From contig JAJYPL010000004.1 of the NCBI GenBank assembly GCA_021795355.1, forward strand, positions 1,467-65,466: a stretch of 64,000 nucleotides of DNA. Direction: 5' to 3'. Shown here piece by piece: positions 21,593 to 43,310 of this stretch. The notes under the pieces were generated by a model. The model searched no databases. It saw only the letters and a program-made list of their open reading frames with translations, and was not told the DNA's origin. How positions within the stretch are numbered: position 1 is the stretch's first letter; each line of letters starts with the position of its first letter. A program made the translations under genes and the position numbers. Origin of the DNA: a bacterium. Lineage in GTDB: Bacteria > SZUA-79 > Acidulodesulfobacterales > Acidulodesulfobacteraceae.

Positions 21593-21940
21593 ATGAAATT
21601 TAAATACGACGTAGAATATATTACGAAAATCACCAAGTTGAGCAAAGAGTTCATACTCGGACTCCTTAAATATTTTGACGGGCTTCCTTTGCAGGCTAAA
21701 CTTGAAGCGTTTTATATAAGCAAAATAATAGAAGAGGACGATGAATTTGCTTTTCATCAGCACTATTTCGATAAAGACAGATCCGCCGAATATGAATTCG
21801 CGCTGTTCATCCTGGGCGTTGAAAGGATATATTCCGTAGAACATAGAAAAGAAGAAGCGGAAGCTCAAGGAAAAAAACTTTCCGCATATAAGATAAATTT
21901 GATTTCAAAAATTACGGAACTCAGGAAGCAGGATGATTAA
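21593..21940 (+). CDS. hypothetical protein
   Basis: 115-aa ORF whose stop overlaps the dsrN start (ATGATTAA). No clear RBS. Overlaps an antisense ORF. Confidence 0.35.
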   Translation: MKFKYDVEYITKITKLSKEFILGLLKYFDGLPLQAKLEAFYISKIIEEDDEFAFHQHYFDKDRSAEYEFALFILGVERIYSVEHRKEEAEAQGKKLSAYKINLISKITELRKQDD

Positions 21941-23411
21941 CGTTGAAAATACCCAAAAATATAAAAAGAATAATAGAAATATTATTAAAGGAATTTACAT
22001 TTCAGCCGCTAAAAGAAATTCAGGGAAAACTACTATTTCTATAGCTCTGTCGCGTTTGCTGAGCAACAGGGGTTTATCCGTCCAGCCTTTCAAAAAAGGC
22101 CCTGATTTTATCGATCCCATGTGGCTGAATATCGCCTCAAGAAACAGGGCTTATAATCTGGATTTCTATTTTATGCCTAAAGATAAAATCAGAAATCATT
22201 TCTTAAAATATTCTTTAAATTCGGACATCAGCATAGTAGAGGGAAATCACGGTCTGCACGATTCTATAGATATTTACGGAAAATCGTCCAACGCCGAAAT
22301 GGCTAAACTGCTGGGACTTCCGGTGATACTTATTATAGACGTCGGAGAATTGAACAGAGGAGTTGTCCCTTTAATATTGGGGTATAAAGAATTCGATAAA
22401 AACGTAGATATAAAAGGCGTTATTCTGAATAAAGTCCACAGCAAAAGACACGAAAAAAATCTGCTTAGAGCGATTAAATATTATACCGATTTAAAGGTCG
22501 TAGGCAATATACCCAATAATCCGGAATTTTCTATAAAACAGAGGCATCTGGGGCTTTTATCGACGATGTCCGGCAGTGAAATAGAAGCGTTGGTAGATAA
22601 GACTTCAACCGAAATCGCGGACTATATAGATTTGGAAGGCATAATAAAAATGTCGAAATTTGCCGACAAACATTATACCGATGCCCAAAAAAAACATATA
22701 TTAAAATTAAACGCCGATAACGCAAAGCAAAAAAATAAAAGAAGCGGCTCAATCAAAATAGGCGTTGCTTTCGATAACGCTTTTAATTTTTATTATAACG
22801 AAAATTTGGAAGCTCTCGAAAATCTCGGATGCGAATTGATTAAATTTTCTCCGCTCTCCGATAAGCATCTGCCGGATATCGACGCTTTATATATAGGCGG
22901 CGGATTTCCGGAAATATTTGCGCAGGATTTACAGGACAATAACTCGATGCGGAAGGAGATAAGACGGAAAATAGAAGAAGGTCTTCCCGTTTATGCAGAG
23001 TGCGGCGGACTTATGTATCTTTGCCAAAGCATTTCTTACGAAAACGGTTTTAACGAAATGGTAGGCGCGATAGACGCCGACGTTAAACTTACCAAAAAAC
23101 CGAAGGGACACGGATACACGAAACTGACCCCGTATTCTTATGGGAAAGCGGGCGTAAGCCTGTGGTTCGATAAAATTAAATTAATAAAAGGACACGAATT
23201 TCATCATTCGTATTTAGAAATGTCTCCGGAAAGATATAAATTTGTATTTAAAATGAAAAAAGGCTACGGAGTGGACGGCTTCTCCGACGGCATAACATAT
23301 AAGAATCTTTTGGCAGGATACACGCATATGTATTCTCCGTCGTCGCCAGGGTGGTTTAAAAACTGGGTTGCTTTTATAAAACGGACAAAAAATAAACAAG
23401 AAAATATGTAG
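21933..23411 (+). CDS. dsrN: cobyrinate a,c-diamide synthase homolog; by context DsrN-like siroheme amidase
   Basis: CbiA/CobB N-terminal P-loop (AKRNSGKTT) and a C-terminal glutamine amidotransferase domain (AECGGLMYL). Sits directly upstream of dsrAB. Confidence 0.75.
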   Translation: MINVENTQKYKKNNRNIIKGIYISAAKRNSGKTTISIALSRLLSNRGLSVQPFKKGPDFIDPMWLNIASRNRAYNLDFYFMPKDKIRNHFLKYSLNSDISIVEGNHGLHDSIDIYGKSSNAEMAKLLGLPVILIIDVGELNRGVVPLILGYKEFDKNVDIKGVILNKVHSKRHEKNLLRAIKYYTDLKVVGNIPNNPEFSIKQRHLGLLSTMSGSEIEALVDKTSTEIADYIDLEGIIKMSKFADKHYTDAQKKHILKLNADNAKQKNKRSGSIKIGVAFDNAFNFYYNENLEALENLGCELIKFSPLSDKHLPDIDALYIGGGFPEIFAQDLQDNNSMRKEIRRKIEEGLPVYAECGGLMYLCQSISYENGFNEMVGAIDADVKLTKKPKGHGYTKLTPYSYGKAGVSLWFDKIKLIKGHEFHHSYLEMSPERYKFVFKMKKGYGVDGFSDGITYKNLLAGYTHMYSPSSPGWFKNWVAFIKRTKNKQENM

Positions 23412-23538
23412 GATTTTTTATTACAACAATCAGATTTTATATTATTTAAAATGTTTAATATTAGTTGTACAATAAATTATTTGAGAACTATAGAAAATAA
23501 AATAACATATAATTTTTTTTATAACGGCAATTTTTTTA

Positions 23539-23568
23539 TTGACAATTATAGCAATAAAGTTGTATAAA
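23539..23568 (+). promoter_or_regulatory. candidate promoter for dsrAB
   Basis: TTGACA (23539-23544), 18-nt spacer, TATAAA (23563-23568), in a very AT-rich 277-bp intergenic region. Confidence 0.35.
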
Positions 23569-23688
23569 TAAAAATTACAACTATGTTTTAGTTTTAATTC
23601 ATTTAAAAAATAATGCGTATAAATATAAGGCGGCATTATAATTATTCTAATTTTATTTTTTTAATATTTAAATAAAGGAGGCTTTACT

Positions 23689-24876
23689 ATGGGTAAAAAG
23701 CACCAGACTCCGCTTCTTGACGAACTTAAAAAAGGGAAGTGGATAAGTTTTGTCAAGGAAATAGAAAGAGCGGCGGAGAAGAGCGAGAGAACCGAAGACC
23801 TTTTGGGACAGGTTGAAGAATCTTACCGCGATAAAGTAAACCATTGGAAACACGGCGGCATGGCGGGCGTTAAGGGATACGGCGCAGGAATGGTCGGCAG
23901 GTTCAGCGAATACCCCGATAAATATCCGGGAATTAAAGAATGTCATTCTATGAGAATTATACCTTCCGCAGGTTTTTTCTATAACTCCGATTTTCTTAGA
24001 AAATTAGCCGATATTTCCGAAAAACACGCCGGAGGCTTGCTGAACTTTCACGGAGCTACCGGAAATATTCAGATACTCGGAATGTCCCAGGCGGAAGCCG
24101 AAGACGTTTTCCAGGCAGTAGCGGAGCTCGGTTTCGACCTTGGCGGCAGCGGATCCGATTTAAGAACGCCTTCATGCTGTGCCGGACAGGCAAGATGCGA
24201 ATTTGCAAATTACGATACTATGAAAATTTGCCGCCATTTAACCGAAGAATATTTGGACGAGCTTCACAGACCGGCGTTTAATTATAAATTTAAATTTAAA
24301 TTTTCAGGATGCTCTAACGACTGCGTCGCATCAGCCGCAAGATCCGATCTTGCTTTCATAGGAACATGGAAAGACAAAATAAAAATCAATCAGGAAGAAG
24401 TAAAAAATTATAAAAAGAAATTCGACGTTCAAAAATACGTTCTCGATAAATGTCCGACAAAGTGCATGTGGTTTGAAGGTGAAAATCTTGCCATCGACGA
24501 CGAAAACTGCGTGAAATGTATGCACTGTATAAATGAACTGCCTAAAGCTCTTAAAGCCGGCGATGAAAGAGGCTGCTCTATTTTAATAGGAGCAAAAGCG
24601 CCTTTGGTTACCGGTCCTAGAATGGGCATGATGCTCGTTCCTTTTTACGACGTAAACGAAGATGCAAAGAACGACTATGAATGGATAAAATCCTTAATTT
24701 CCAATATGTGGGAATTCTGGGACGAATACGGAGTCAGCAGGGAAAGAATAGGAGAGCTTATAGGAAGGGTAGGATTAAATACCTTCTTGGAAGGCATAGG
24801 ATTAGAGCCTATTCCCGAAATGGTCGAACATCCGAGAAGCAATCCGTTTATTAAATTTACCGAAGACGAAGATTAG
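23689..24876 (+). CDS. dsrA: dissimilatory sulfite reductase alpha subunit
   Basis: Cysteine clusters (PSCCAGQARCE, FSGCSNDCVAS) and ferredoxin-insert cysteines (CPTKC, CVKCMHC). Paired with dsrB. RBS aaaggagg. Confidence 0.9.
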   Translation: MGKKHQTPLLDELKKGKWISFVKEIERAAEKSERTEDLLGQVEESYRDKVNHWKHGGMAGVKGYGAGMVGRFSEYPDKYPGIKECHSMRIIPSAGFFYNSDFLRKLADISEKHAGGLLNFHGATGNIQILGMSQAEAEDVFQAVAELGFDLGGSGSDLRTPSCCAGQARCEFANYDTMKICRHLTEEYLDELHRPAFNYKFKFKFSGCSNDCVASAARSDLAFIGTWKDKIKINQEEVKNYKKKFDVQKYVLDKCPTKCMWFEGENLAIDDENCVKCMHCINELPKALKAGDERGCSILIGAKAPLVTGPRMGMMLVPFYDVNEDAKNDYEWIKSLISNMWEFWDEYGVSRERIGELIGRVGLNTFLEGIGLEPIPEMVEHPRSNPFIKFTEDED

Positions 24877-24949
24877 TAGTCTTAAAATTTAAAAATTAAA
24901 ATAATAATAACAATAATTTTTAGCATTATATATAAATTTGGAGGTTAAT

Positions 24950-26035
24950 ATGGCAGAAGAAGTTAAAAAGAAAAGACTTACCGATATTGGACCCCATGAT
25001 TACAACGAATATTTGTCGCCCGTTATAAAAAAGAATTACGGCAAATGGGCTTATCATGAGATTATCGATCCCGGCACTATGGTGCACGTGGCGGAAAGCG
25101 GCGATAAACTGTATACGGTGAGAATGGGTTCGCCGAGATTAGTCAGCGGCAGTTTCGTGAGGGATATTTGCGATATCGCCGATAAATACTGCGGCGGACA
25201 CTTAAGATTTACTACAAGAAATAACGTTGAATTTTTAATAGAAGACGAAAAAAACGTCGAACCGCTTAAAAAAGACCTTGAAAAAATGGGCTATAACGTA
25301 GGCGGCATAGGCAACATTGTTGCAAATATAGTTCATACTCAGGGATGGGTGCACTGCCATACTTCCGCAAGCGATGCATCAGGCGTCGTAAAATCGGTCA
25401 TGGATGAATTATATGAATATTTTGTTGAAGAAAAGCTTCCGTCAAAAGTCAGAATAGCATTTGCATGCTGTTTAAATATGTGCGGTTCCGTTTCGTCTTC
25501 GGACATAGCTATAGTAGGAACTCACAGAAAACCGCCGAGAATCGATCTCGAAAGACTTAGAAACCTCTGCGAAATACCGAGTACTATTGCGGCGTGTCCT
25601 ACAAATTCAATCAGGCCGGATACCGTGGACGGTAAACCGGCAGTAAAAGTAAACGAAGAAACTTGCGTTTTTTGCGGAAGCTGCTATACGGTTTGTCCCG
25701 CTATGCCTATTGCTAATGCCGAAAACGACGGTTTATCGATTTGGGTCGGAGGAAAAGTATCCAATGCCAGAACGAAACCGACTTTCTCTAAATTGGCGAT
25801 ACCGTTTATTCCTAATGATCCTCCGAGATGGCCGGGAGTAGTAAACGCCGTTAAAACTATTCTTAACGAATATAAAAAAGGCGCAGAACCGGGCGAAAGA
25901 GTCGGCGAATGGATAGACAGGATAGGCTGGCCGAGATTCTTTAAGATTACGGGATTCCCGTTCACGAAATACCATATCGACGATTTCAGGCTCGGCGAAA
26001 CTACTATGAACTATTCTTCGCACGCCAGGTTGTAG
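24950..26035 (+). CDS. dsrB: dissimilatory sulfite reductase beta subunit
   Basis: [10 protein letters not shown] siroheme/[4Fe-4S] region, CCLNMCG, and a ferredoxin insert ([12 protein letters not shown]). Start set at the ATG 5 nt after GGAGG; the track ORF begins at 24938. Confidence 0.9.
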
Positions 26036-26099: not shown

Positions 26100-26336
26100 A
26101 TGACTGACGAAACTAAAAAGAAAGTCGAGGATAAAATTTTAGGGCTTGTGACGGAATATGCAGGAAAAAAAAGGTTCAAGCCGATAGATATCGTTAAGGA
26201 AATGGAAAAGGAGTTTGCAAGCGAAGGGTTAACTAAAGACGATATTAAAGGAGCATTAAAAGACTTAATGGACGATGAAAAGCTTGTTTACGGATATGCA
26301 GGAGGCAGTTTCCTGACGCTTCCGGAAAATAAGTAA
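26100..26336 (+). CDS. dsrD: DsrD-like small winged-helix protein
   Basis: 78 aa, immediately after dsrB. Lys-rich N-terminus and a C-terminal LVYGYAGGSFLTL that aligns with the EYWSSGSTTMYGL region of DsrD. Confidence 0.7.
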   Translation: MTDETKKKVEDKILGLVTEYAGKKRFKPIDIVKEMEKEFASEGLTKDDIKGALKDLMDDEKLVYGYAGGSFLTLPENK

Positions 26337-26355
26337 ATAACTAACTAATAAAAAA

Positions 26356-26390
26356 ACGGTAAGGCGTAAATAAAGTTTACGCCTTACCGT
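26356..26390 (+). terminator. strong hairpin after dsrD (attenuator or mRNA-stabilising stem)
   Basis: acggtaaggcgtaaa / tttacgccttaccgt perfect 15-bp stem with a 5-nt loop. No T-tract. Confidence 0.4.
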
Positions 26391-26455
26391 CGAATAATAA
26401 ATAGCGTTGGCCGAAATTTAATCCGTCCAACTGAAAAATAAAATAGGGAAAAATT

Positions 26456-28168
26456 ATGCTTGAATTAAAAAAACCAAAAAAACCGGCAAAAATTGCGGCA
26501 AATACGGGCGGCGGCATGTCTCAGTCGCCGTACAGGCCCAAATACGTCGAAAAAAGACCTCCGTGTATGGATACTTGTCCGAATGGAACCAAGGTTAGGG
26601 ATTATATTCAGCTTATAGCGCAGAGCGAGTCATACGACCGTCCGATAGACGACTCCTTAAAACTCGCTTTTAATATGCTGACGGAGTCGAATCCCCTTCC
26701 TTCGACAACGGGAAGAGTATGTCCCCATCCGTGCGAGGATGCATGCAACAGAAAAGAAAAAGACACGCCGGTAGCCATTAACGCTATAGAAATGTTTGTA
26801 GGAGATTACGGAATAAAAAATAATCTTCAGTATAAAAAATTGACCGAAGTTACAAGAAAAGAAAAGATTGCAATAATAGGAAGCGGCCCTGCGGGATTGT
26901 CGGCAGCTTATCATCTTGCGTTAAGGGGATATAACGTGGTTATTTTCGAAAAATTTCCGGAAACCGGAGGATATTTAAGGTACGGAATACCCCGTTTCAG
27001 GCTGCCGTTAGATATCATAGATGCGGAAGTTCAGCGCATTAAAAATCTCGGAGTAGAGATTAAGACAGGGGTTAACATAGGGACGGACGTAACGTTAGAC
27101 GGCCTTAAGTCAGAATATGACGCAATATTTATAGCTATAGGAACTCACGAACCTATAAAAATGAAGATGAACGGCGCAGATTCCGCTAATGTTTATACCG
27201 GAATAGAATTTCTGCAGAAAGCGGCTTCCGGCGAACTTAAAGATGCGGGAAAAGAAGTTGTAGTTATCGGGAGCGACAGCGCAATGGACGCGGGAATGGT
27301 TGCAAAAAGGCTGGGCGCTAACGTCACGTTTATTTATAATAAAGGCACCGTTAACGATGCATCCGAAATAGAAGAAAAAGGTTCTACGGAAGTAAAAGAG
27401 GGGCACGCCGAAGGAATAAAATTCGAATTTTTATTTGCGCTTGACGAGATAGTTACGGAAAACGGCAAAGCCACAGCCGTAAAACTTAAAAAAATGAAAC
27501 TTTCTGAGAAAGACGCATCCGGCAGGGTTCATCCGATAATCATCGAAGGCGGACAGGAACTTAATTTAAAATTAGACACCCTGATATATTCGTTCGGTCA
27601 AAAACCGGATTATAAAGGTTTAGAAAATCTAACTAAAAATCCGAATAACGAGTTTTTAAAAGTTGACGATAATTATCTTGTAGCAGGAGAAGATAAAGTG
27701 TTTGCCGGCGGCGATATATTAAGGTTCGGTCTCGTTACGGATGCTATCGGAATGGGAAGATATGCCGCATACGCTATACATAAAAAGTTTAGCGGAGAAC
27801 AGGTTATTAACGACGAAAGAAGAGTTATAAAGTACGACGACGCAGTAAACAGAGAAGGGAAAAATATGTATCTTGCATATTTTCAGCCGGCAGAAAGAAA
27901 GAAAAGGACATCTAGAGATCCGAAAGAAAGAGTTAAAGATTTCGAGGGTATTTTAAACGACCTTAATTTCGACGAACTTGTTTCGGAAGTAAAGAGGTGT
28001 ATGAGCTGCGGACTTTGCTTCGACTGCGGCAGCTGTTTCGAATACTGCTCGCAGAGCGCAGTTAAAAAATTGCCCAAAGGACAGCATTTCGAATTTCATC
28101 TCGAAACGTGCAACGGATGTAAAAAATGCGCCGAAAGCTGCCCATGCGGTTATATAGATATGCTGTAA
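26456..28168 (+). CDS. dsrL: DsrL-like NAD(P)H:acceptor oxidoreductase (GltD-like flavoprotein with C-terminal 2x[4Fe-4S] ferredoxin domain)
   Basis: N-terminal Cys cluster (CPHPCEDACNR), FAD/NAD folds (IIGSGPAGLSAA, VIGSDSAMD), and C-terminal CMSCGLCFDCGSC...CNGCKKCAESCPC. Located within the dsr cluster. Confidence 0.75.
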   Translation: MLELKKPKKPAKIAANTGGGMSQSPYRPKYVEKRPPCMDTCPNGTKVRDYIQLIAQSESYDRPIDDSLKLAFNMLTESNPLPSTTGRVCPHPCEDACNRKEKDTPVAINAIEMFVGDYGIKNNLQYKKLTEVTRKEKIAIIGSGPAGLSAAYHLALRGYNVVIFEKFPETGGYLRYGIPRFRLPLDIIDAEVQRIKNLGVEIKTGVNIGTDVTLDGLKSEYDAIFIAIGTHEPIKMKMNGADSANVYTGIEFLQKAASGELKDAGKEVVVIGSDSAMDAGMVAKRLGANVTFIYNKGTVNDASEIEEKGSTEVKEGHAEGIKFEFLFALDEIVTENGKATAVKLKKMKLSEKDASGRVHPIIIEGGQELNLKLDTLIYSFGQKPDYKGLENLTKNPNNEFLKVDDNYLVAGEDKVFAGGDILRFGLVTDAIGMGRYAAYAIHKKFSGEQVINDERRVIKYDDAVNREGKNMYLAYFQPAERKKRTSRDPKERVKDFEGILNDLNFDELVSEVKRCMSCGLCFDCGSCFEYCSQSAVKKLPKGQHFEFHLETCNGCKKCAESCPCGYIDML

Positions 28169-28237: not shown

Positions 28238-28579
28238 ATGGCAAGTTTTGTTTATAACGGAAAAACGATAGAAACGGATGACGAAGGTTACCTTCAGAAT
28301 CTTGGAGACTGGGATAAAGGTCTTGCTGAAGTTCTTGCGAAGCAGGAAAATGTCGAATTAACCGAAAAGCACTGGAAATTAATTGAATGGATCAGGGATT
28401 ATTTCCAGAAATTTCAGGTTGCGCCGGCAATTAAATCGCTGACGAAAGAGGTCATGTCGCTTGAAAATTTACCTGATAAAAAAGAAGCTAATAAATTCAT
28501 TTATGAATTATTTCCGGAAGGTCCCGCAAAACAGCTTGCAAAAATCTCCGGTCTTCCTAAACCGACAGGCTGCGTTTAA
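28238..28579 (+). CDS. dsrC: DsrC/TusE-family protein with a single (penultimate) cysteine
   Basis: The C-terminus KISGLPKPTGCV matches the DsrC swinging arm. The position of the second conserved Cys, 11 residues upstream, is Ala. Confidence 0.85.
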   Translation: MASFVYNGKTIETDDEGYLQNLGDWDKGLAEVLAKQENVELTEKHWKLIEWIRDYFQKFQVAPAIKSLTKEVMSLENLPDKKEANKFIYELFPEGPAKQLAKISGLPKPTGCV

Positions 28580-28688: not shown

Positions 28689-29450
28689 ATGGAACCTCTT
28701 ACCGTTACAACTTATATATATTTATTAATTACATATTCAGTCGGATTAGTTTTTGCCATAGGCGTTATTTTGAGAATATATCAATATGCAACTACGCCGC
28801 AGCCTATTAAAATAATGCTGACTCCGGCGCCTCTTACGAAAAGCGGCGCATTCGCGAGAGTTCTCGGAGAGGTATTTTTCTTTAAAAGCCTCTTTAAATC
28901 CAATAAGCCTACATGGGTATTCGGATACCTGTTTCATATTTCGTTTTTTCTTTTAATAGCCATGCATTTTGCGCGCCATTTTGTTTACACTAATCCTTTG
29001 CCTTCCTGGTACAACTATTTCGTATTGGCGGGGATAGTATGCGGAATAATTATGGTTTTATCTCTTTTTTTACTTCTCATGAGAAGGGTGGTCGTTGAAA
29101 GAGTCAAATTTATATCTCTGTTTCAAGACTATTTGATATTAATTTTATTGATGCTTATAGGCATAGCCGGTCTGTCTTTGAATTTTGTATTAACGCCAAG
29201 CGCATTGACCGTAGTAGATAAACAGCTGGATCCGTATATAAACGGTCTTTTGACGTTTCAATTCACTAATATACCGTCAAATCCGTTATTTTTGATGCAC
29301 TATACTCTGGTAATGCTTCTTATTCTATATATACCGTTCAGCAAAGTAATGCATTTCGTAGGAATATTCTTTTCTCCGACAAGAAATATGGCGGATAATC
29401 CTATAGAAGAAAGGTATTATCGTCCTAATGCAAAGGATCTTTCAATATAG
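28689..29450 (+). CDS. dsrM: DsrM, NarI-like membrane di-heme cytochrome b
   Basis: Five or six TM helices with conserved His residues (FHISFF, MHFARH, MHY, MHFVG). Immediately upstream of dsrK. Confidence 0.8.
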   Translation: MEPLTVTTYIYLLITYSVGLVFAIGVILRIYQYATTPQPIKIMLTPAPLTKSGAFARVLGEVFFFKSLFKSNKPTWVFGYLFHISFFLLIAMHFARHFVYTNPLPSWYNYFVLAGIVCGIIMVLSLFLLLMRRVVVERVKFISLFQDYLILILLMLIGIAGLSLNFVLTPSALTVVDKQLDPYINGLLTFQFTNIPSNPLFLMHYTLVMLLILYIPFSKVMHFVGIFFSPTRNMADNPIEERYYRPNAKDLSI

Positions 29451-29573
29451 AGGTGTGCGATATAAGCATGCAAAACCGATTTAAATTTATAGTCTAACTA
29501 CTATATAAAATATAAATAATAAATAACCTGCAATTTTGATTCTTCATAAGGATTAATCGGAGGTATGTACAGT

Positions 29574-31193: not shown

Positions 31194-31227
31194 TAAATAA
31201 TAAATTAAATTATTAATGGAGGAACTA

Positions 31228-33656: not shown

Positions 33657-33747
33657 TTCAGTTATAATTTTATATTGCCGGCTTGATATAAAGCGGCAGT
33701 ATATATTCTTATAAAAAAACAAAATATAAAATTAAGGAGGTATGGAA

Positions 33748-34246: not shown

Positions 34247-36172
34247 ATGGCTGAAATGAAAGGTTCAATGACTAGCACCGAAGTTTTGAACAATTATACC
34301 ATAGAAGAAATCAGCACCGACGTCTTAATCGTCGGCGGCGGTATGGTTGGTTGCGGAGCCGCATTCGAAATCAAAAAATGGGCGCCGAAAGATATGAAAA
34401 TAACTTTGATAGAAAAAGCTTCCATAGAAAGAAGCGGCGCCGTTGCAATGGGATTATCCGCTATTAATACGTATCTTGGAGACAATACTCCGGAAGATTA
34501 CGTTAAACACGTTGCTAACGACCTTATGGGTATAGTTAGGGAAGACCTTATATACGATACCGGAAGGCACGTCGATTCTACCGTAAGGCTTTTTGAAAAA
34601 TTCGGACTTCCTATATTTAAAGAAGACGAAGACGATTCAAGAACGATTGCCGAGGGAGCAAAACCGTTAAGAGCAGGAAGATGGCAGATAATGATTCACG
34701 GCGAGTCTTATAAAGTACTTGTTGCCGAAGCGGCAAGAAAAGCTTTAGGCGAAGAAAACATCAAGGAAAGAGTCTTTATTACCGAACTTCTTATGGACGA
34801 AAAGCACGAAAACAGGGTTGCCGGAGCAATCGGTTTCAGCTTAAGAGAAGCAAAAATATATATCATTAAAGCAAAAGCGGTAATCATGGCTTGCGGCGGA
34901 ACGGTTAACGTTTTCAGGCCGAGATCCCAGGCTGAAGGTATGGGAAGAACATGGTATGCAATATGGAATGCCGGTTCTACCTATGCTATGGGTTATCAGG
35001 CCGGCGCAGAAATGACCACTATGGAAAACAGATTCGTTCCGAACAGATTTAAAGACGGATACGGACCCGTAGGCGCATGGTTTACTCTCTTCAAATCCAG
35101 AGTTTTAAATGCTCACGGTGAAGATTATATGCAGAAATGGGGACACATGCTTCAGGATTATGCTCCTTACGGACTTGCGAAAGTTCCCGCCACTTGCTTA
35201 TGGAACCACGTTATGCTTAAAGACTGGATGGAAGGAAACGGTCCTTTCTATATGAATACGTCCGGCGCTATGAAAACGCTTTTTGAAACTCTTCCCGAAA
35301 AGAGAAAAAAATCGCTTGAAGCCGATGCTTGGGAAGATTTCCTTGATATGACGGTTGCGCAGGCGGGATTATGGGCGTCGATGGATATAGATCCTGGTGA
35401 AACAAACTCCGAAGTTATGCCGACCGAACCTTATTTCTTAGGTTCGCATTCGGGCGCTTGCGGAATGTGGGTTTCGGGACCGGAAGATTTAGCTCCGAAG
35501 GAATATCAGTGGGGCTATAACCGTATGACGACAGTTAACGGACTATTCACAGGCGGCGACGGCGTAGGAGCATCCGGACACAAATTCTCTTCCGGCTCAT
35601 ACGTAGAAGGAAGAATTGCGGCAAAATCCGCAGTCAGGTTTATACTTGACGATCCGGGATTTACGCCTACGGTTCATACCGACAACAAAGTCCTTGCGGA
35701 AAAAGTGTACGGACCTATGATAACCTTTGAAAAATTCAAAGACTATTCCACAGAGTCAAACGTAAATCCTAACTATATAAAACCGAGGCTCTATCTGTTC
35801 AGGTTGAATAAACTTATGGACGAATACGTCGCCGGAACTTCGACTTTCTACAGGACAAGCGAAGCCAGCCTTTTAAGAGGATTGGATCTTTTAAACAGAT
35901 TGAAAGAGGATGCGCCTAAACTTGCGGCCGCCAATCTCCATGAACTTATGAGAGCATGGGAAAATTACCACAGGTCTATAGTCGGCGAACTTCACTTAAG
36001 GCATGTACTGTTCAGAGAAGAAACAAGATATCCGGGCTTCTATTACAGAACCGACCATCCCAAACTCGACGAGCAGAACTGGAAGGTTTTTGTGAATTCT
36101 AAATTAAATAAAACAACGGGACAGCCGGAATTGTTTAAAAAGCCTTATATTGAAATCGTTCCGAAAAATTAG
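34247..36172 (+). CDS. aprA: adenylylsulfate (APS) reductase alpha subunit
   Basis: FAD fold VGGGMVGCGAA. Length of 641 aa and motifs typical of AprA (fumarate-reductase-like flavoprotein). Confidence 0.95.
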   Translation: MAEMKGSMTSTEVLNNYTIEEISTDVLIVGGGMVGCGAAFEIKKWAPKDMKITLIEKASIERSGAVAMGLSAINTYLGDNTPEDYVKHVANDLMGIVREDLIYDTGRHVDSTVRLFEKFGLPIFKEDEDDSRTIAEGAKPLRAGRWQIMIHGESYKVLVAEAARKALGEENIKERVFITELLMDEKHENRVAGAIGFSLREAKIYIIKAKAVIMACGGTVNVFRPRSQAEGMGRTWYAIWNAGSTYAMGYQAGAEMTTMENRFVPNRFKDGYGPVGAWFTLFKSRVLNAHGEDYMQKWGHMLQDYAPYGLAKVPATCLWNHVMLKDWMEGNGPFYMNTSGAMKTLFETLPEKRKKSLEADAWEDFLDMTVAQAGLWASMDIDPGETNSEVMPTEPYFLGSHSGACGMWVSGPEDLAPKEYQWGYNRMTTVNGLFTGGDGVGASGHKFSSGSYVEGRIAAKSAVRFILDDPGFTPTVHTDNKVLAEKVYGPMITFEKFKDYSTESNVNPNYIKPRLYLFRLNKLMDEYVAGTSTFYRTSEASLLRGLDLLNRLKEDAPKLAAANLHELMRAWENYHRSIVGELHLRHVLFREETRYPGFYYRTDHPKLDEQNWKVFVNSKLNKTTGQPELFKKPYIEIVPKN

Positions 36173-36219
36173 TAAATAAACTTAATATATTGTAAAAATA
36201 ATTTATAAAATTAAGTCTA

Positions 36220-36250
36220 TCCCCTTCTCTAGATAGAGAAGGGGATTTTA
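36220..36250 (+). terminator. rho-independent terminator after aprA
   Basis: tccccttctct / agagaagggga 11-bp stem with a 4-nt loop, followed by tttta. Confidence 0.6.
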
Positions 36251-36323: not shown

Positions 36324-37622
36324 TTGAGCGAGCTAAATAATGAAAATGCCGTGCTAATAATCGGCGGCGGGCACAGCGGGGTATCTGCCGCATTAGAAAT
36401 CACCGAGGCGGTCGATAAAAAAGTATATATAGTAGAAAAAAAATCGTATATCGGCGGCAGGGTTCTCCAGATGTATAAGTATTTTCCAAAATTATGCCCC
36501 CCATTCTGCGGCTTTGAAATCAATACGAAAAGAATAAAGTCGTCCGCCGAAGGAAATATAAATTTTTTAGTTTCTTCAAGCGTCGAAGAAATCACGAAAG
36601 CAAAAGAAGGATCAGGATATAAAGTAAAAATTAAACAAAAACCGCAATATATCAACGATAACTGTACCGTATGCGGAGAATGCGCTAAGGTTTGCCCCGA
36701 AGAAAGACCTAACGATTTCAATTACGGCATGGATAATACTAAAGCTATATTTATGCCTGCAATATCTTCGTTTCCCCTTAAATACAGCGTAGATGATAAA
36801 TACTGCAAGTTTTCTGCATGTAAAAAATGCGAAGAAGCGTGCAGATACAGTGCAATTAACTTGGATGCAAAAGAGAATATTATAGAATTAACGGTATCAG
36901 ATATCATATTTGCTACGGGCTGGAAGCCCTATGAAGTAGAAAAATTAGAAAACCTGGGATACGGCAAATATAAAAACGTTATTACCAACGTAAAAATGGA
37001 GAGGCTTGCCGCAGAAAACGGTCCTACAGGCGGAAAAATTTTAAGGCCGTCCGACGGAAAAGAAGTTAAAAACGTAGCATTTATTCAGTGCGCCGGCTCC
37101 AGAAACGAAAACCATCTGCCATACTGTTCCGCGATTTGCTGTATGGCATCCTTGAAGCAGGCGATGTATTTGAGGGAAAAAAATCCCGAATCCTCGCCGG
37201 TCATATTTTATATAGATTTAAGAACGCCGGGCAGATATGAAAATTTTTTAAATAAAGCTCAAAGCGACGAAAAAATAAAATTCAATAAAGGAATAGTCGG
37301 CAAAATATCCGAAGACCGTGAAACGGGAGATCTGCTTTTAGACGTCGAAGATATGCTTTCCGGCAAAAAAAATAAGGTCAGGGCGGAAATGGTGGTTCTT
37401 GCCGCAGGAATGGCGTCAAACATTAAAGACGACCTTAAAGAAATTAAAATAGACGAAGAAATTAAAATAGATATCGACGAAAACGGATTTATATTTAACG
37501 ATAATTTTAAAGAAGGAATATTTTCGGCAGGCGTTGCAAGGTTTCCTTTGGACGTTTATATGTCCGGACAATCTGCGACTTCAGCAGCATTATCGGTAAT
37601 TCAGCATAACGCGAAACTATAA
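36324..37622 (+). CDS. qmoA: QmoA (HdrA-like flavoprotein)
   Basis: IIGGGHSGVSAA FAD fold, CTVCGECAKVCP, and CSAICC typical of the HdrA/Qmo family. TTG start. Follows aprBA. Confidence 0.85.
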   Translation: MSELNNENAVLIIGGGHSGVSAALEITEAVDKKVYIVEKKSYIGGRVLQMYKYFPKLCPPFCGFEINTKRIKSSAEGNINFLVSSSVEEITKAKEGSGYKVKIKQKPQYINDNCTVCGECAKVCPEERPNDFNYGMDNTKAIFMPAISSFPLKYSVDDKYCKFSACKKCEEACRYSAINLDAKENIIELTVSDIIFATGWKPYEVEKLENLGYGKYKNVITNVKMERLAAENGPTGGKILRPSDGKEVKNVAFIQCAGSRNENHLPYCSAICCMASLKQAMYLREKNPESSPVIFYIDLRTPGRYENFLNKAQSDEKIKFNKGIVGKISEDRETGDLLLDVEDMLSGKKNKVRAEMVVLAAGMASNIKDDLKEIKIDEEIKIDIDENGFIFNDNFKEGIFSAGVARFPLDVYMSGQSATSAALSVIQHNAKL

Positions 37623-37648: not shown

Positions 37649-39955
37649 ATGGATAATAATTTGGGGATTTATATATGTTCCGGCTGCGATATAGGAAAAA
37701 GCCTTAACGTTGAAAGATTAATCAATACCGCGAAAGATTCCGGCAAGCCTTTAGTATGCGTAAGCCATGAGTTTCTTTGCGGACCGGAAGGCATAAATCT
37801 CATAAAAAACGATATTTCCGAAAAAAAAATAAATAAATTAGTAATAGCCGCCTGTTCGATGCGCGCCAAACAGGATGTTTTTAATTTCGACCAGTTTACT
37901 ATTCATACCGAAAGGGTAAACTTAAGGGAGCACGTTATTTGGATAAGCCCGCCGAACGATAATAATACACAGCTTCTTGCAGAAGATTATATAAATATGG
38001 GCGCTTCTAGAGCAAAAAAAGCTGCATTTCCGGAACCTTTAGTCCAGGACCTTAACAAAACGGTTCTCGTAGTAGGCGGCGGAGTTACAGGACTTAACGC
38101 ATCGGTTAACGCCGCGAAAGCTGGTTACGACGTCGTTCTTGTCGAAAAAAAGCCGAATCTCGGCGGATTTCCGTTTTCAAAATATAAAAAATGGGAAACC
38201 AAACCCCCTTTCGACAAAAATACGTGGATAAGGGAAGGATTAGACGAACTTATAAGCGAAGCGGAAAAATCTAATAAAATAAAAATATATAAAAATTCTA
38301 AAATTAAGTCTATATCCGGAGCGCCGGGCAAATTTAACGTAGAAATAGAATCAGCCGAAGGAAATTCCGGTTCGGAGCCTGTTAAAGAAATTGCCGGTTC
38401 TATAGTCGCAGCGACGGGCTGGAAGCCTTACGATGCAAAAAAATTGGATAATCTTGGATACGGTTTAACGCCCGATATTTTAACAAACGTAGAACTGGAA
38501 GAACTGTATTCCGAGCTCTCGGATAACGGAAAATCCGAAAATTTCGCATTAAAAAGAAAATCGGACGGCAAGCCGGTTAAGTCGGTATTGTTTGTTCAGT
38601 GCGCAGGTTCAAGGGACGAAAATCATCTTCCTTACTGTTCGACCGTCTGCTGTATGTCTTCCTTAAAAGAAGCCGCTTTAATAAGAAAAAACAATCCCGA
38701 TGCAAATGTTTACATTATATACAAAGATATGAGAACTATGGGCGAATACGAAAACTTTTACAGAAAAATGCAGGACGACGAGGGCATTTTTATGGTTAAA
38801 GGCGTCGTATCCGGCGTATCGTTCGACAAGAGCGGAAATACCATAGGCGTTAAGGTAAAAGATACCCTTTTCGGAGGAGATATCGATATAAATACCGAAA
38901 TGGTCGTTCTTGCTACCGGTATGGTTCCGAATTCCGGAGAGATAGAATTAAAAGATAATGCCGCAACTTTAAACGTAGGAGAAGTACAGCCTGCAAGCGG
39001 AGCTTCCTGTCCGCCTTCCGTGCCTGTTTCAACGGCTCAGGTTCCTAAGAGCGGCTTGTTAAACCTTTCCTATAGGCAGGGTAAAGAAATGCCGGACCTT
39101 ATTTACGGATTTCCGGATTCAAATTTCATATGCTTTCCTTACGAATCAAGAAGGACGGGAATATATCCCGCCGGTTCCGTCAGGATGCCTTTAGATACCG
39201 TCTTTTCCGTCGATGATGCGAAAGGAGCGGTTTTAAAGGCCATACAGTGTATTGAACAGACTTCTAAAGGCAGGGCGGTTCACCCTCGTTCAAACGATAC
39301 TACGTACCCGTTTTTTGACCTTCCAAGGTGTACGCAGTGTAAAAGATGCACCGAAGAGTGTCCTTTCGGCGCTATAGACGAAGACGAAAAAGGAACGCCG
39401 CAATATAATCCCGAAAGATGCAGGAGATGCGGTATATGCATGGGCGCATGTCCGGTAAGAATCATATCGTTTAAAAATTATTCGCCGGATATTATCGGCT
39501 CTATGATTAAAAGCATATACGTTCCGGAAGATCCGACCGACGAAAATTACAGGATATTAGTATTTGCATGCGAAAACGACGCTTATCCGGCTCTCGACAT
39601 ACTCGGATTGAATAAAATGAACTTATCTTCTAATATAAGGGTTATTCCGGTAAGGTGTCTCGGTTCTATAAATAACGTATGGTATGCCGACGCTCTTTCA
39701 AAAGGCATAGACGGCATTCTTTTGCTGGGCTGTAAATACGGCGACGACTATCAGTGCCATTTTACGAAAGGTTCGGAACTGGCTTCTTACAGAATGGGAA
39801 ACCTCAAGGAAACACTTACAAGGCTTGTTCTCGAAGAAGAAAGAGTCAGGCAGGTTCAGCTCGAATATACCGACTATATGAAACTGCCGGAAATAGTCGA
39901 AGATTTCGTTAATAAAGTTAAATCTCTTGGACCTAATCCATATAAAGGCTTTTAA
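37649..39955 (+). CDS. qmoB: QmoB (HdrA-like flavoprotein with MvhD-like C-terminal domain)
   Basis: VVGGGVTGLNAS, CSTVCC, CTQCKRCTEECP...CRRCGICMGACP, and the C-terminal FACENDAY...GC..GDDYQCHF. Confidence 0.85.
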   Translation: MDNNLGIYICSGCDIGKSLNVERLINTAKDSGKPLVCVSHEFLCGPEGINLIKNDISEKKINKLVIAACSMRAKQDVFNFDQFTIHTERVNLREHVIWISPPNDNNTQLLAEDYINMGASRAKKAAFPEPLVQDLNKTVLVVGGGVTGLNASVNAAKAGYDVVLVEKKPNLGGFPFSKYKKWETKPPFDKNTWIREGLDELISEAEKSNKIKIYKNSKIKSISGAPGKFNVEIESAEGNSGSEPVKEIAGSIVAATGWKPYDAKKLDNLGYGLTPDILTNVELEELYSELSDNGKSENFALKRKSDGKPVKSVLFVQCAGSRDENHLPYCSTVCCMSSLKEAALIRKNNPDANVYIIYKDMRTMGEYENFYRKMQDDEGIFMVKGVVSGVSFDKSGNTIGVKVKDTLFGGDIDINTEMVVLATGMVPNSGEIELKDNAATLNVGEVQPASGASCPPSVPVSTAQVPKSGLLNLSYRQGKEMPDLIYGFPDSNFICFPYESRRTGIYPAGSVRMPLDTVFSVDDAKGAVLKAIQCIEQTSKGRAVHPRSNDTTYPFFDLPRCTQCKRCTEECPFGAIDEDEKGTPQYNPERCRRCGICMGACPVRIISFKNYSPDIIGSMIKSIYVPEDPTDENYRILVFACENDAYPALDILGLNKMNLSSNIRVIPVRCLGSINNVWYADALSKGIDGILLLGCKYGDDYQCHFTKGSELASYRMGNLKETLTRLVLEEERVRQVQLEYTDYMKLPEIVEDFVNKVKSLGPNPYKGF

Positions 39956-39970: not shown

Positions 39971-41134
39971 TTGAATAATACCGTTATTAAGACCGACAAC
40001 GAGTTGATTAAATATATAAAAGAAGTAGGCGAAAGCAATTTTAAAAAATGTTTTCAGTGCGGCACGTGTTCCGCAGTATGTCCTCTGTCAACCGAAGACA
40101 GGCCGTTTCCGAGAAAAGAAATGATAATGGCGGGATGGGGAATGAAAGAACAGCTGACCGCCGATTTAGACCCATGGTTATGCTATTACTGCGGCGAATG
40201 CTCCAAGAACTGCCCAAGGAAAGCCGAACCGGGCGAACTGATGATGTCGCTGCGCCGTTTTTTAATAAGCGCGTATGACTGGACCGGGATTTCAAAGCTT
40301 TTATATGTATCGAAGTACGCCGAATATATCGCAATATTAATAGTAGCGCTCGGAGTTTTGCTTGAGTGGGCGGTTATATTCGGACTTCATCCGGCCGCAG
40401 GAGCGACGCTGTCCCAAGCGGTATCTCCGGATAAAGTGGACTATTTCTTCGACTGGCCGATATCGGCTTTTCTTGCAATTATGCTGACGTCTTTCATATA
40501 CAATATGTACCGGAAGACGGTATTAAGCGACAAAAGCGTGAAAATTCCGCTAAGCCTTTACGTTACGGAAGCATGGTCGCTGATATTTAACTTTTTTACG
40601 CAGTATAGATATGCAAAATGCGACGATTCTGAAGAGTCGGCGACTAAAAAACTTGCCTCCGGCAAATATAATTTCTGGCTTGCCCATCTTTTCTTAATGA
40701 TAAGCTATGTATCCCTGTTTGTAGCCATCGTATTTTTCTTGGACTGGTTTCAAAGCGAAAACAGCATGCCGATTCTTCATATAGTTCTATTCGATTATTT
40801 TGCCAGCATAGGATTAATTTTCGGAACTATTTATTTTATAATTAAAAGATTTTCTAAAAAAATAGAAAGAAGCAAGTTTTCCCATCATACCGACTGGATG
40901 TTCGTCACACTGCTCTTTTTAACGGCGGTTAGCGGAGTTTTACTAAGGGCGGCTATAGTTTACAACTATTCGGTTTCCGCTATTTTTTATATATATCTGA
41001 TTCATTTAATGATATTATTTCCGATGCTTGTGATAGAAGTTCCTTTTTCTAAATGGTCACATCTTGCTTACAGACCGGTTGCAGTATATTTTGCAAACTT
41101 AAAAGAAAAAGCTAAAAACCTAAGTAATAATTAA
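39971..41134 (+). CDS. qmoC: QmoC (HdrC-like Fe-S domain fused to HdrE-like membrane cytochrome b)
   Basis: CFQCGTCSAVCP and CYYCGECSKNCP, followed by about six TM helices. TTG start after the aaagggggg RBS. Confidence 0.8.
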   Translation: MNNTVIKTDNELIKYIKEVGESNFKKCFQCGTCSAVCPLSTEDRPFPRKEMIMAGWGMKEQLTADLDPWLCYYCGECSKNCPRKAEPGELMMSLRRFLISAYDWTGISKLLYVSKYAEYIAILIVALGVLLEWAVIFGLHPAAGATLSQAVSPDKVDYFFDWPISAFLAIMLTSFIYNMYRKTVLSDKSVKIPLSLYVTEAWSLIFNFFTQYRYAKCDDSEESATKKLASGKYNFWLAHLFLMISYVSLFVAIVFFLDWFQSENSMPILHIVLFDYFASIGLIFGTIYFIIKRFSKKIERSKFSHHTDWMFVTLLFLTAVSGVLLRAAIVYNYSVSAIFYIYLIHLMILFPMLVIEVPFSKWSHLAYRPVAVYFANLKEKAKNLSNN

Positions 41135-41204
41135 TGCTTTAACATGTGTAATGTTAAAGAAATTTTAATAATAATTAAAAATTTAATTTAGGGGGTTTTA
41201 GGTT

Positions 41205-43310
41205 ATGAGTCTATTTGACAAAGCAATGATTTTCGGAATTATTGCGGGTCTTATCGCCGTTATTTACAGTATAGCGGTAACGATATGGGCTATGAAGCAG
41301 GATGAAGGTTCCGACAGAATGAAACAGATAGCTAAGGCTATCCAGGAAGGCGCCACAGCATTTCTTAACAGGCAGTATAGGACGGTAGCGATAGTGGGAG
41401 TAGTTATTTTCGCTTTGCTTCTTATCGGTAAAATATGGGTGCCCCAGTTTGGGCTTTTAACGGCATGCGGATTTGCGTTGGGCGCTTTTTTATCGGCTTT
41501 GGCAGGTTATCTCGGTATGTTTAACGCTGTTAGAGCAAACATAAGAACTGCCCAGATTGCGCATAAAGGCGTAAAACCGGCTTTAAAGTTTGCATTTAAA
41601 GGCGGTTCCGTTACCGGCTTAATGGTTTTAGGCCTCGGCGTCCTCGGAATATCGGTTTTTATGTTAATAGGGTATCACACGAGCGGGCTTGACGGCGTTA
41701 TAAATTCATTAATAGGCTTTGCTTTCGGATGCAGTCTTATTTCCGTTTTTGCAAGGCTTGGCGGCGGTATATACACTAAGGCTGCAGACGTAGGCGCCGA
41801 CCTCGTCGGAAAAGTAGAAGCCGGAATACCGGAAGACGACCCAAGAAACCCTGCGGTTATTGCAGACCAGGTCGGAGACAACGTCGGAGACTGCGCCGGT
41901 ATGGCGGCAGATGTTTTTGAAACTTTTGCTGTTACTATAATAGCATCTATATTGCTGGCATACTCCACCTTTAAAACCGGTTCAAACAGCGGCAGTCTAA
42001 TGCACGGTATACTTTACCCCCTTCTTTTGGGAGGCATAGCAGTTTTTACATCGATTATAGGCGTATTTTTCGTAAGCGCTCCAACTAAAGAAAAAATTAT
42101 GCAGGGTCTTTATAAAGGGCTGTTCGTTACAGGAATAGTTTCGGCTATTGCATATTATTTCTTCACAATGGCTTTTATGAAGCACGTTGGAACCCATTCC
42201 GCAATGGATTATTACTATGCGGCTCTCGTCGGTCTTATTTTAACCGGACTAATTATAGTAATAACCGATTATTTTACATCGACTCAATTTTCACCTGTCA
42301 AATCTATAGCCGAAGCATCGACAACCGGTCACGGAACTAACATTATTGCAGGATTAGCAGTAGGACAGATGTCCACGGCTTTGCCTGTTATAGCGATAGT
42401 TTTCGGCATTTTGATTTCTTATCATTTTGCGGGTTTTTACGGCGTGGCGGTTGCGGCTTCCAGCATGCTCTCTATGGCGGGAATGGTAATAGCGGTCGAT
42501 TCGTTCGGACCTATTACCGATAATGCCGGGGGTATCGCCGAAATGAGCGAACTTCCGGAAGACGTCAGGGAAACCACCGATGCACTCGATGCAGTCGGAA
42601 ACACGACAAAAGCGGTAACGAAAGGATATGCTATAGGCTCCGCAGCTCTTGCGGCTATAGTACTTTTCGGAGAATACTCTAATTTGATCCAAAATGGATA
42701 CGTAAAGGCAGGACTAGAAAAAATATCGTTTTCTATACATCAGCCTATGGTATTAATAGGACTTTTCCTCGGCGCAATGCTTCCTTATATATTTGCTTCC
42801 CTTGCAATGAAATCCGTCGGAAAGGCGGCGGGAGATATAGTCGTCGAAGTCAGGAGGCAGTTTAAAGAAATTCCCGGAATCATGGACGGCACCGGCAAAC
42901 CCGAATACGGAAAATGCGTCGATATAGTCACGAAATCTTCCTTAAGGGAAATGATACTTCCCGCATTTATTCCGATTGCCGGTCCTATTGTTTTCGGTCT
43001 TACTATGGGACCTCAGGTTCTCGGCGGGATATTATTGGGAACTATTATATCGGGTCTTTTCGTCGCAATATCTATGACAAGCGGCGGAGCGGCATGGGAT
43101 AACGCAAAAAAACTTATAGAAAAAGGATTTGAATATAACGGACAGACGTACCGCAAAGGCAGCGAAGCCCACAAAGCCGCAGTTACCGGCGACACCGTCG
43201 GCGATCCTTACAAAGATACCGCCGGTCCGGCAATCAACCCGATGATTAAAGTCGTAAACATCTTTACTATCTTAATCATCCCGATTGTCTTACTGCTTTG
43301 GGCGCATTAA
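41205..43310 (+). CDS. hppA: membrane-bound ion-translocating pyrophosphatase
   Basis: 16-TM protein with GGG(I/L)[23 protein letters not shown]-like ([12 protein letters not shown]) and [11 protein letters not shown] motifs. Confidence 0.95.

Follow-up and report, generated by a model that had tools for sequence, protein, structure and literature searches.

Sulfur-cycle microbiology has yet to settle whether a dissimilatory sulfite reductase (Dsr) pathway that relies on reductive-type DsrAB can work both ways, and Candidatus Acidulodesulfobacterales (GTDB SZUA-79) is one of the standard examples cited. We scrutinized a 64-kb stretch of DNA from this clade (contig JAJYPL010000004.1 of assembly GCA_021795355.1; hereafter, the window), on which a row of dsr genes combines dsrAB and a DsrD-type gene with dsrL and dsrEFH and runs on into a complete Sat-AprBA-QmoABC-HppA branch. 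Judged from gene content and residue states, the row probably encodes a mainly reductive pathway, including the reductive half of disproportionation, that would operate in a Desulfurella-like manner on reductive-type DsrAB. The window raises no new question about the clade; its additions are modest, namely a DsrC with a single cysteine throughout the clade and a DsrD-like ORF that standard profiles miss.

Eighteen successive plus-strand open reading frames (ORFs) occupied 21933-43310, with spacers of 15-277 bp (ORF list). Pfam and NCBIfam profile searches, with bit scores compared with curated cutoffs where given, identified them in the order dsrN-dsrA-dsrB-78-aa ORF-dsrL-dsrC-dsrM-dsrK-dsrE-dsrF-dsrH-sat-aprB-aprA-qmoA-qmoB-qmoC-hppA. 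This agrees with an earlier sequence-only reading, which had described a one-strand, 21-kb row with a DsrD-type gene, DsrL, and DsrEFH adjoining DsrAB and the complete Sat-AprBA-QmoABC-HppA branch. That reading had also seen DsrMK alone, and domain searches likewise detected no DsrJ, DsrO, or DsrP domains within the window, flanks included. DsrM, QmoA, QmoB, and QmoC were named from architecture and gene order, because their models scored under cutoff or were HdrA-like only. The row, the ORF that precedes it, and the hairpin that ends it are as follows.

21593-21940, + strand, orf115, 115 aa, conserved upstream of dsrN, its stop overlapping the dsrN start by 8 bp
21933-23411, + strand, dsrN, siroheme a,c-diamide synthase of the CobB type (TIGR00379, 439 bits; GATase_3 and CbiA domains)
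23689-24876, + strand, dsrA (TIGR02064, 489 bits vs cutoff 393)
24938-26035, + strand, dsrB (TIGR02066, 500 bits vs cutoff 342)
26100-26336, + strand, very probable diverged dsrD, 78 aa, winged helix without Cys (position, wider-family profile, fold model)
26456-28168, + strand, dsrL type 2 (PRK12771, 537 bits vs cutoff 516; Fer4_20, Pyr_redox_2, C-terminal Fer4_7)
28238-28579, + strand, dsrC, single-cysteine (TIGR03342, DsrC/TusE family, 135 bits vs 53.5; PF04358, 134 bits)
28689-29450, + strand, dsrM, NarI-like membrane cytochrome b (PF02665; NF038037, 99.5 bits, under cutoff 300; named by position beside dsrK)
29565-31061, + strand, dsrK, HdrD-like catalytic subunit (NF045796, 528 bits vs cutoff 400; Fer4_8 and CCG domains)
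31216-31578, + strand, dsrE (TIGR03012, 102 bits vs cutoff 89)
31617-31991, + strand, dsrF (TIGR03010, 107 bits vs cutoff 94)
32044-32343, + strand, dsrH (TIGR03011, 88 bits vs cutoff 49)
32433-33656, + strand, sat, ATP sulfurylase (PRK04149, 529.5 bits vs cutoff 387)
33742-34182, + strand, aprB, adenosine 5'-phosphosulfate (APS) reductase (TIGR02060, 217 bits vs cutoff 136)
34247-36172, + strand, aprA, APS reductase (TIGR02061, 916 bits vs cutoff 642)
36324-37622, + strand, qmoA (HdrA-like model only; architecture and position after aprBA)
37649-39955, + strand, qmoB (HdrA-like plus MvhD/FlpD domain; architecture and position after aprBA)
39971-41134, + strand, qmoC (NF038018, 231 bits, under cutoff 300; architecture and position after aprBA)
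41205-43310, + strand, hppA, membrane ion-pumping pyrophosphatase (NF001951, 1003 bits vs cutoff 859; PF03030, 868 bits)
43341-43379, + strand, terminator-like hairpin, 17-bp stem then T-run, ending the gene row

The row represents the chromosomal dissimilatory sulfur cluster of a bacterium of Candidatus Acidulodesulfobacterales/-ota from acid mine drainage, and is the "chimeric" Dsr system already published for that clade. Its DsrB was 94% identical to that of metagenome-assembled genome (MAG) DBS1-1.bin125 and 84% identical to those of MAG SZUA-79 and Candidatus Acididesulfobacter diazotrophicus AP1, the next matches (65% or less) coming from other phyla, among them Acidobacteriota. The NCBI taxonomy assigns the genus to the phylum Candidatus Acidulodesulfobacteriota. 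Since the assembly is of the metagenome type and the genes are of mixed phylogenetic affinity (PMC10504309), reducer genes might have been fused with oxidizer genes by mis-assembly. The order orf115 through dsrH, however, was repeated in eight other species-level MAGs, five of whose loci run on into sat-aprBA, while one has four added genes before sat and two stop at dsrH. Over 12 independent assemblies, drawn from ENA, NCBI, and Logan samples, showed the same order, the further ones agreeing as far as they extend, and the DsrA of the window was present residue for residue in acid-mine-drainage assemblies of both ENA and NCBI. GC content and skew were even over the cluster region and the intergenic spacers were short. 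Mis-assembly is thus excluded by the recurrence of the gene order in many independent assemblies, and its probability is negligible.

Consistent with published typing, the DsrAB of the window appears to be of the reductive bacterial type. DsrA scored approximately 430 bits against solved reductive DsrA chains in the PDB, and its median identity was 54% to dsrD-linked DsrA vs 42% to viral reverse-type DsrA (rDsrA). A neighbor-joining, midpoint-rooted tree of 125 sequences, which is not a curated maximum-likelihood phylogeny, grouped the clade with 69 dsrD-linked DsrAs, apart from 47 viral rDsrAs that, following the SUP05-phage literature, we take to be oxidative-type. For the check that the sequence-only reading had proposed, a DsrAB phylogeny, this DsrA tree places the clade on the reductive side. 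Clade DsrAB has been published as reductive, as latest-diverging, or as "disproportionation" type (PMC6776010, PMC7596348, PMC12506266, PMC10591310).

The naming of the 78-aa ORF as dsrD, for which the sequence-only reading had offered a profile search as arbiter, stood only in part. There was no match to Pfam DsrD (PF08679, gathering threshold 24.2 bits) even at E <= 10, no DsrD match in NCBIfam, no match to DsrD 1UCR when PDB sequences were searched by phmmer, and no BLASTP alignment with Desulfovibrio vulgaris DsrD (sequence verified against 1UCR). A profile built from the clade only gave a probability of 2% against Desulfovibrio DsrD (hhalign), and the wing of the ORF reads YGYAGGSF vs YWSSGSTT in Desulfobacterota DsrD, a motif that it lacks. 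The AlphaFold2 (AF2) model was a winged helix (H-H-H-beta-beta; predicted local distance difference test score, pLDDT, 89.9). Foldseek ranked the DsrD structures 1wq2 and 1ucr sixth and thirteenth (template modeling score 0.59-0.68), with generic winged-helix proteins (Fur, Z-alpha, LmrR; E ~1e-2) at the top and scoring equally well. The model thus supports the fold and nothing more, and does not single out DsrD. These results would all suit a generic winged-helix DNA-binding regulator that does not function as DsrD, in which case the reductive-marker half of the finding would fail.

Such a regulator is nonetheless improbable, given where the gene is found. The ORF starts 65 bp past the dsrB stop, and phmmer detected a homolog in 70 of 80 other dsrAB loci from a genome scan (Acidobacteriota, Zixibacteria, Gemmatimonadota, Nitrospirota, and others), nearly all directly 3' of dsrB and, where measurable, 3-140 bp from it. 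This synteny is the strongest evidence for DsrD identity. At the level of these phyla, surveys name the small gene 3' of reductive dsrAB dsrD (PMC10591310). Among 1.84 billion representatives, a profile of clade sequences matched 66 clusters, and PF08679 was matched by 9 of 46 full-length family members at E <= 0.01 (best E 4.4e-6). The alignment of the wider family profile to Desulfovibrio DsrD covered the complete domain in register (hhalign; E 2.9e-4, probability 40%), the GGS of the family falling on the SGS of Desulfovibrio DsrD, and the family hidden Markov model reported 120 of 120 canonical DsrDs at E <= 10, with a top score of ~21 bits. The ORF also resembles DsrD in its length of about 78 residues without Cys, and both solved DsrD structures were among the top 13 fold matches. 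Taken together, synteny, the wider profile, and the fold make it very probable that the 78-aa ORF is a diverged DsrD and the positional ortholog. DsrD, which oxidizers lack, activates sulfite reduction allosterically (Ferreira et al. 2022); an activator function is predicted here. The AP1 ortholog scored 13.3 bits with PF08679, and positional homologs from Acidobacteriota, Zixibacteria, Nitrospirota, and similar loci (L019-L090) were mostly under the Pfam threshold (0-15 bits vs 24.2). Because the Pfam and NCBIfam models miss clade DsrD and most of the Acidobacteriota- and Zixibacteria-type DsrDs tested, "dsrD absent" by profile is an unreliable statement in metagenomes for these lineages.

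DsrL consisted of an N-terminal two-cluster domain (Fer4_20), FAD/NAD(P) domains, and a C-terminal Fer4_7 at residues 521-565. The typing asked for by the sequence-only reading gave DsrL-2, with one departure: YNK at residues 294-296 takes the place of YRR, an NADP(H)-preference motif. YRR was retained in 61 of 71 aligned DsrLs, including the sister subgroup of the clade (L015-L018), and YNK was limited to the subgroup of the window (L011-L014 and the window). In the distal N-terminal cluster, Arg stood at the fourth ligand position in place of Cys, with SPYRP aligning with the S-x-L-R-P of other DsrL-2. Such an Arg is a usual feature of DsrL-2 where the DsrAB is reductive; DsrL-2 accompanies this DsrAB type and donates NAD(P)H electrons for sulfite reduction (PMC7596348).

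DsrE, DsrF, and DsrH, encoded by adjacent genes, all exceeded the cutoffs of the DsrE/TusD, DsrF/TusC, and DsrH/TusB equivalogs. The equivalent of the DsrE active-site Cys78 was conserved (LIVCVAAGKRRG; alignment with Allochromatium vinosum DsrE 2HY5_A, VVCVAAA vs LIVCVAAG). DsrH had Ala at the position of A. vinosum Cys20 (alignment to 2HY5_C), a residue that is reported to be conserved in oxidizers. Among the 80 loci, dsrEFH occurred near reductive dsrAB only in the clade, one Thermoleophilia MAG, and one Nitrospirota MAG. Treating dsrL and dsrEFH as oxidizer markers, as the sequence-only reading did, is an outdated framing: neither is a clean marker any longer, because the DsrL is type 2 and because the DsrE-like proteins and DsrL of Desulfurella amilsii, whose dsr genes group with those of the clade, are induced in reduction.

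The Thermoleophilia MAG (B_ACT_02; L046) carried two dsrAB sets on one contig, at 1783-4437 and from 6448 onwards. In the first, dsrAB is followed by a DsrD-like gene and then dsrL; the second reads dsrAB-dsrL-dsrEFH, and its DsrL has Cys, not Arg, at the distal-cluster ligand position. The DsrA of the second set branched between the reductive and viral groups. As an oxidative reference this second dsrAB was dropped, being no nearer to viral rDsrA than reductive sequences are, and viral rDsrA was used instead.

The assignment of dsrC likewise needed qualification. The protein belongs to the DsrC family and matched eight solved DsrC/TusE chains in the PDB, and its C-terminus (...GPAKQLAKISGLPKPTGCV) ends in the arm SGLPKPTGCV (canonical arm AGLPKPTGCV) with penultimate CysA (C112), in agreement with the DiSCo DsrC motif when a single mismatch is tolerated. 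It is not, however, the two-cysteine form: the CysB position, 11 residues upstream of CysA, is Ala101, at whose equivalent Cys was present in 4/4 alignments examined (A. vinosum, Archaeoglobus fulgidus, Pyrobaculum aerophilum, and D. norvegicum). Ala occupied the CysB position in 13 of 13 complete DsrCs from clade loci, and CysB was kept in 47 of 47 dsrAB-linked DsrCs of other lineages. In agreement with this, CysB was missing from 19 of 19 clade clusters in the database and present in 62 of the 63 next-nearest DsrC clusters. All 13 clade DsrCs without CysB sit in loci with dsrEFH, and all 47 two-cysteine loci have no dsrEFH nearby. A six-frame motif search found no second, two-cysteine dsrC in the window. 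Because CysB is absent, the intramolecular CysA-S-CysB trisulfide of the standard model cannot form on this DsrC. A single-cysteine DsrC has been published for Desulfurella amilsii, where DsrE-like proteins of the operon were proposed to compensate for the missing Cys (PMC6378623). Our literature search found no published statement of CysB loss in Acidulodesulfobacterales DsrC, which is not proof that it is unpublished. The loss of CysB from the operon DsrC of the clade wherever DsrEFH is present makes DsrE-DsrC persulfide chemistry a candidate replacement for the DsrC trisulfide.

From this gene content, these residue states, and this clade identity, we infer every catalytic step and the direction of the pathway. 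Sat would activate sulfate, with HppA pulling the reaction by removal of pyrophosphate (PPi) and conserving energy, and AprBA would reduce APS to sulfite with electrons from QmoABC. Reductive-type DsrAB would then reduce sulfite, stimulated by the diverged DsrD and supplied by DsrL-2 with electrons from NAD(P)H. Since a single-cysteine DsrC cannot form the intramolecular trisulfide, the partly reduced sulfur would probably travel as a persulfide on DsrC CysA, or else as a mixed polysulfide that involves DsrE Cys78. DsrEFH would be an obligatory sulfur relay partner, and DsrMK would tie the cycle to the quinone pool. The grouping of DsrA with dsrD-linked DsrA, the DsrD homolog after dsrB, the Arg ligand of DsrL, and the co-linearity of hppA with sat-apr-qmo all favor the reductive direction, as do the published typing of clade DsrAB and the in situ transcript levels, with dsrD far above dsrEFH and dsrAB tracking sulfate (PMC6776010). 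Membrane pyrophosphatases reportedly accompany sulfate activation in several sulfate reducers (Pereira et al. 2011). The closest experimental precedent, by analogy, is D. amilsii, in which thiosulfate/sulfite reduction raises the levels of DsrAB, single-cysteine DsrC, DsrK, DsrE-like proteins, and DsrL (PMC6378623). A persulfide relay would in principle also let this machinery work in the opposite sense; reversal to oxidation is possible but unproven.

Several points weigh against a mainly reductive pathway. Direction is pure inference for this uncultured clade, and the DsrD assignment leans on weak profile scores. The YNK of DsrL removes the NADP(H)-preference signature and could favor NAD+ reduction, i.e., the oxidative direction. 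The best PDB match of DsrC was to the sulfur oxidizer A. vinosum (127 bits, with A. fulgidus at 103 and D. vulgaris at 75), and the nearest nonclade DsrCs, where a source was named, came mostly from Gammaproteobacteria and Nitrospinae MAGs. DsrC, DsrMK, and DsrN are of oxidative-type phylogenetic affinity (PMC10504309), and DsrCMKEFH was assigned as oxidative in 2025 (PMC12506266). A two-cysteine dsrC may exist elsewhere in the genome, the search having covered the window and the loci, and the association of CysB loss with dsrEFH amounts to one evolutionary change, which Desulfurella may share, and not to independent replication.

The sequence-only reading had offered a bidirectional pathway, a disproportionating pathway, or an evolutionary intermediate. 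These are reasonable; they are also already the published hypotheses (PMC6776010, PMC7596348, PMC12506266) and are not decidable from sequence. Under the proposal of Tan et al. 2019, the clade would reduce sulfate in anoxic biofilm or sediment and oxidize sulfide or sulfur to sulfate when conditions are micro-oxic. The co-directional row, in which reductive-associated DsrAB and DsrD stand with DsrC, DsrMK, DsrN, and DsrEFH of oxidative affinity, would suit such a redox-dependent switch. So would a persulfide-relay DsrC/DsrEFH, the sulfur entry route of oxidizers (Ferreira et al. 2022, PMC7596348), a YNK that may relax the NADP(H) specificity of DsrL, and the YeeE-like transporter, DsrE-like pair, and secreted rhodanese encoded at 1427-4378. 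Against this, reversal of reductive-type DsrAB has never been shown experimentally and all established oxidizers lack DsrD (Ferreira et al. 2022), in situ dsrD transcripts far exceeded those of dsrEFH (PMC6776010), and no linkage to sox, sqr, or a terminal oxidase was found within the window. We regard a redox-dependent two-way pathway as rather unlikely.

An organism running the pathway in reverse only, a sulfur oxidizer "disguised as a sulfate reducer", would pass sulfur from DsrEFH to DsrC and DsrAB, with the resulting sulfite converted to sulfate by AprBA/Sat. The Ala at the DsrH Cys20 position speaks against it, given the reported conservation of Cys20 in oxidizers, and the sat-linked hppA would fit PPi removal, not PPi consumption. 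The conserved DsrE Cys78 and the oxidative-type affinities of DsrC, DsrMK, and DsrN (PMC10504309) are in its favor, and Desulfurivibrio and cable bacteria set a precedent for sulfide oxidation with reductive-type DsrAB (PMC6776010; Ferreira et al. 2022). The clade, however, has a DsrD that is highly transcribed (PMC6776010), the DsrL of the window belongs to type 2 and carries the Arg ligand associated with reductive DsrAB, and the Desulfurella homologs are induced in reductive mode (PMC6378623). A dedicated oxidizer is very unlikely, and a mainly reductive pathway remains the reading that we prefer.

More speculatively, the modules of Acidulodesulfobacterota and Desulfurella may constitute a mechanistically distinct, trisulfide-free Dsr cycle, in which DsrE Cys78 would replace DsrC CysB and the intermediate would be an intermolecular persulfide or polysulfide; we put this forward tentatively. 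Its parts may be single-cysteine DsrC, DsrEFH or DsrE-like proteins, DsrMK without JOP, and DsrL-2. If true, the DsrAB step could be truly reversible within one organism, and the YNK DsrL would be an adaptation letting the enzyme also reduce NAD+.

Several features bear on how the row is transcribed. The dsrN-dsrA spacer (23412-23688, 277 bp) is very AT-rich and contains TTGACA-17-TATAAA at ~23541-23570, by its sequence a likely dsrABD promoter, and a hairpin with a 12-bp stem and a T-rich tail lies 3' of aprA (36219-36246). With this candidate promoter and this hairpin, the 21-kb row is probably several transcription units and not one operon. A perfect hairpin with a 16-bp stem (26355-26391) was also present 19 bp past the stop of the dsrD-like ORF. 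It was considered as an attenuator accounting for the excess of dsrD over dsrEFH transcripts and rejected as a conserved element, because it is absent from the same spacer in 8 of 8 related species and because its T-run is on the wrong strand, an A-run preceding the hairpin so that the T-run falls on the minus strand. This hairpin is strain-specific.

An orf115 homolog lay directly 5' of dsrN in 8 of 8 clade loci (L011-L018) and in none of the other lineages; it was also called as a gene in L001, L002, L005, and L007. It had no Pfam match, and its single-sequence AF2 model was all-helical and poor (pLDDT 55). The protein could be a clade-specific regulator or a Dsr accessory protein. The locus with added genes before sat belongs to MAG YF1.bin84 (L005 16139-19731, same contig as L018). 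Between dsrH and sat, it encodes a 477-aa protein without Pfam match, a 76-aa Succ_DH_flav_C fragment, a Fer2_3/Fer4_8 protein, and a CCG-domain protein, which from their domains resemble a module of the fumarate-reductase or Hdr type.

Housekeeping, sulfur-trafficking, and carbon-fixation genes flank the row. A second plus-strand row for sulfur handling, at 1427-4378, comprises the following.

1427-2605, + strand, YeeE/YedE-type "sulphur transport" membrane protein
2650-2946, + strand, small membrane ORF
2993-3298, + strand, DsrE-like protein, 101 aa
3311-3583, + strand, partner ORF, 90 aa
3854-4378, + strand, rhodanese with signal peptide

This row could be an uptake and relay route for sulfane sulfur or thiosulfate that feeds DsrEFH/DsrC. 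On the same strand, 50475-60977 encodes beta-carbonic anhydrase, isocitrate dehydrogenase, OsmC, biotin carboxylase with a carboxyltransferase/biotin carboxyl carrier protein subunit (2-oxoglutarate or pyruvate carboxylase type), CcsA- and CcsB-like citryl-CoA synthetase, a short citrate-synthase-like citryl-CoA lyase, and the fructose-1,6-bisphosphatase GlpX. This is a reductive tricarboxylic acid cycle variant in the style of Hydrogenobacter/Leptospirillum, with two-step citrate cleavage, and fits the reported autotrophy of the clade.

The gene combination is already known and has been in print since 2019, and its typing has been published along with the three hypotheses. Tan et al. 2019 reported dsr operons of the clade in which reductive-type dsrAB and dsrD are joined, "surprisingly", by dsrL and dsrEFH, and proposed sulfate reduction plus possible sulfide oxidation, set by oxygen; dsrAB transcript abundance correlated with sulfate (PMC6776010). 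The clade DsrL was typed as DsrL-2 by Loffler et al. 2020, who found that these genera alone among DsrL-2 have YNK for YRR and are among the few organisms combining reductive DsrA, DsrL-2, and DsrEFH (PMC7596348). Ferreira et al. 2022 pointed to the clade to illustrate ambiguous marker sets, and Neukirchen et al. 2023 described its DsrAB as reductive-type and its complex as DsrMK only, without JOP (PMC10504309). Diao et al. 2023 counted SZUA-79 among the phyla whose Dsr set is full, with dsrD and a type 2 dsrL as parts of it (PMC10591310). The 2025 Acidulodesulfobacteriota paper proposed a mixed pathway with Sat-AprAB-Qmo and DsrD reductive, and described DsrAB as a "reductive disproportionation type", sister to Desulfurella and possibly transitional (PMC12506266).

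Compared with known systems, the window is closest to the dsr operons of the Ca. Acidulodesulfobacterales MAGs AP1, AP3, and AP4 (PMC6776010), which belong to the same clade. The AP1 locus has the same order, orf115-dsrN-AB-D-L-C-MK-EFH, as far as it extends, other clade loci run into sat-aprBA, and the AP-type operons share the YNK exception in DsrL. Nothing substantive differs, and the window comes from a further strain or species within that genus-level group. The dsrAB-D-L(-N)-C-MK clusters of Acidobacteriota, Zixibacteria, Gemmatimonadota, and others (Hausmann 2018; Anantharaman 2018; Diao 2023) also have reductive-type DsrAB (DsrB identity 61-65%) and the diverged DsrD family directly after dsrB, followed by DsrL-2. 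They differ in their two-cysteine DsrC (47/47), the absence of dsrEFH within 10 kb, and a DsrL with YRR.

The reverse Dsr system of A. vinosum (dsrABEFHCMKLJOPNRS) shares type I DsrEFH with DsrE Cys78, DsrL, and DsrN with the window, whose DsrC is closer to that of A. vinosum than to any other solved DsrC. Opposite to the window, A. vinosum has oxidative-type DsrAB, DsrL-1A, two-cysteine DsrC, DsrH Cys20, full DsrMKJOP, and no DsrD. D. amilsii, in contrast, shares DsrMK without DsrJOP, DsrL-2, single-cysteine DsrC, and DsrE-like genes in the operon (PMC6378623). It differs in being without sat and apr, hence incapable of sulfate reduction (PMC6378623), in having two DsrE-like genes and not a DsrE/DsrF/DsrH triplet, and in a DsrL with YRR and a strict dependence on NADP(H) (PMC7596348); dsrD goes unmentioned in Florentino et al. 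2019 (PMC6378623), and neither the genome scan nor the DsrC search listed the Desulfurella locus among its matches. Its DsrAB is the reported sister lineage of clade DsrAB (PMC12506266).

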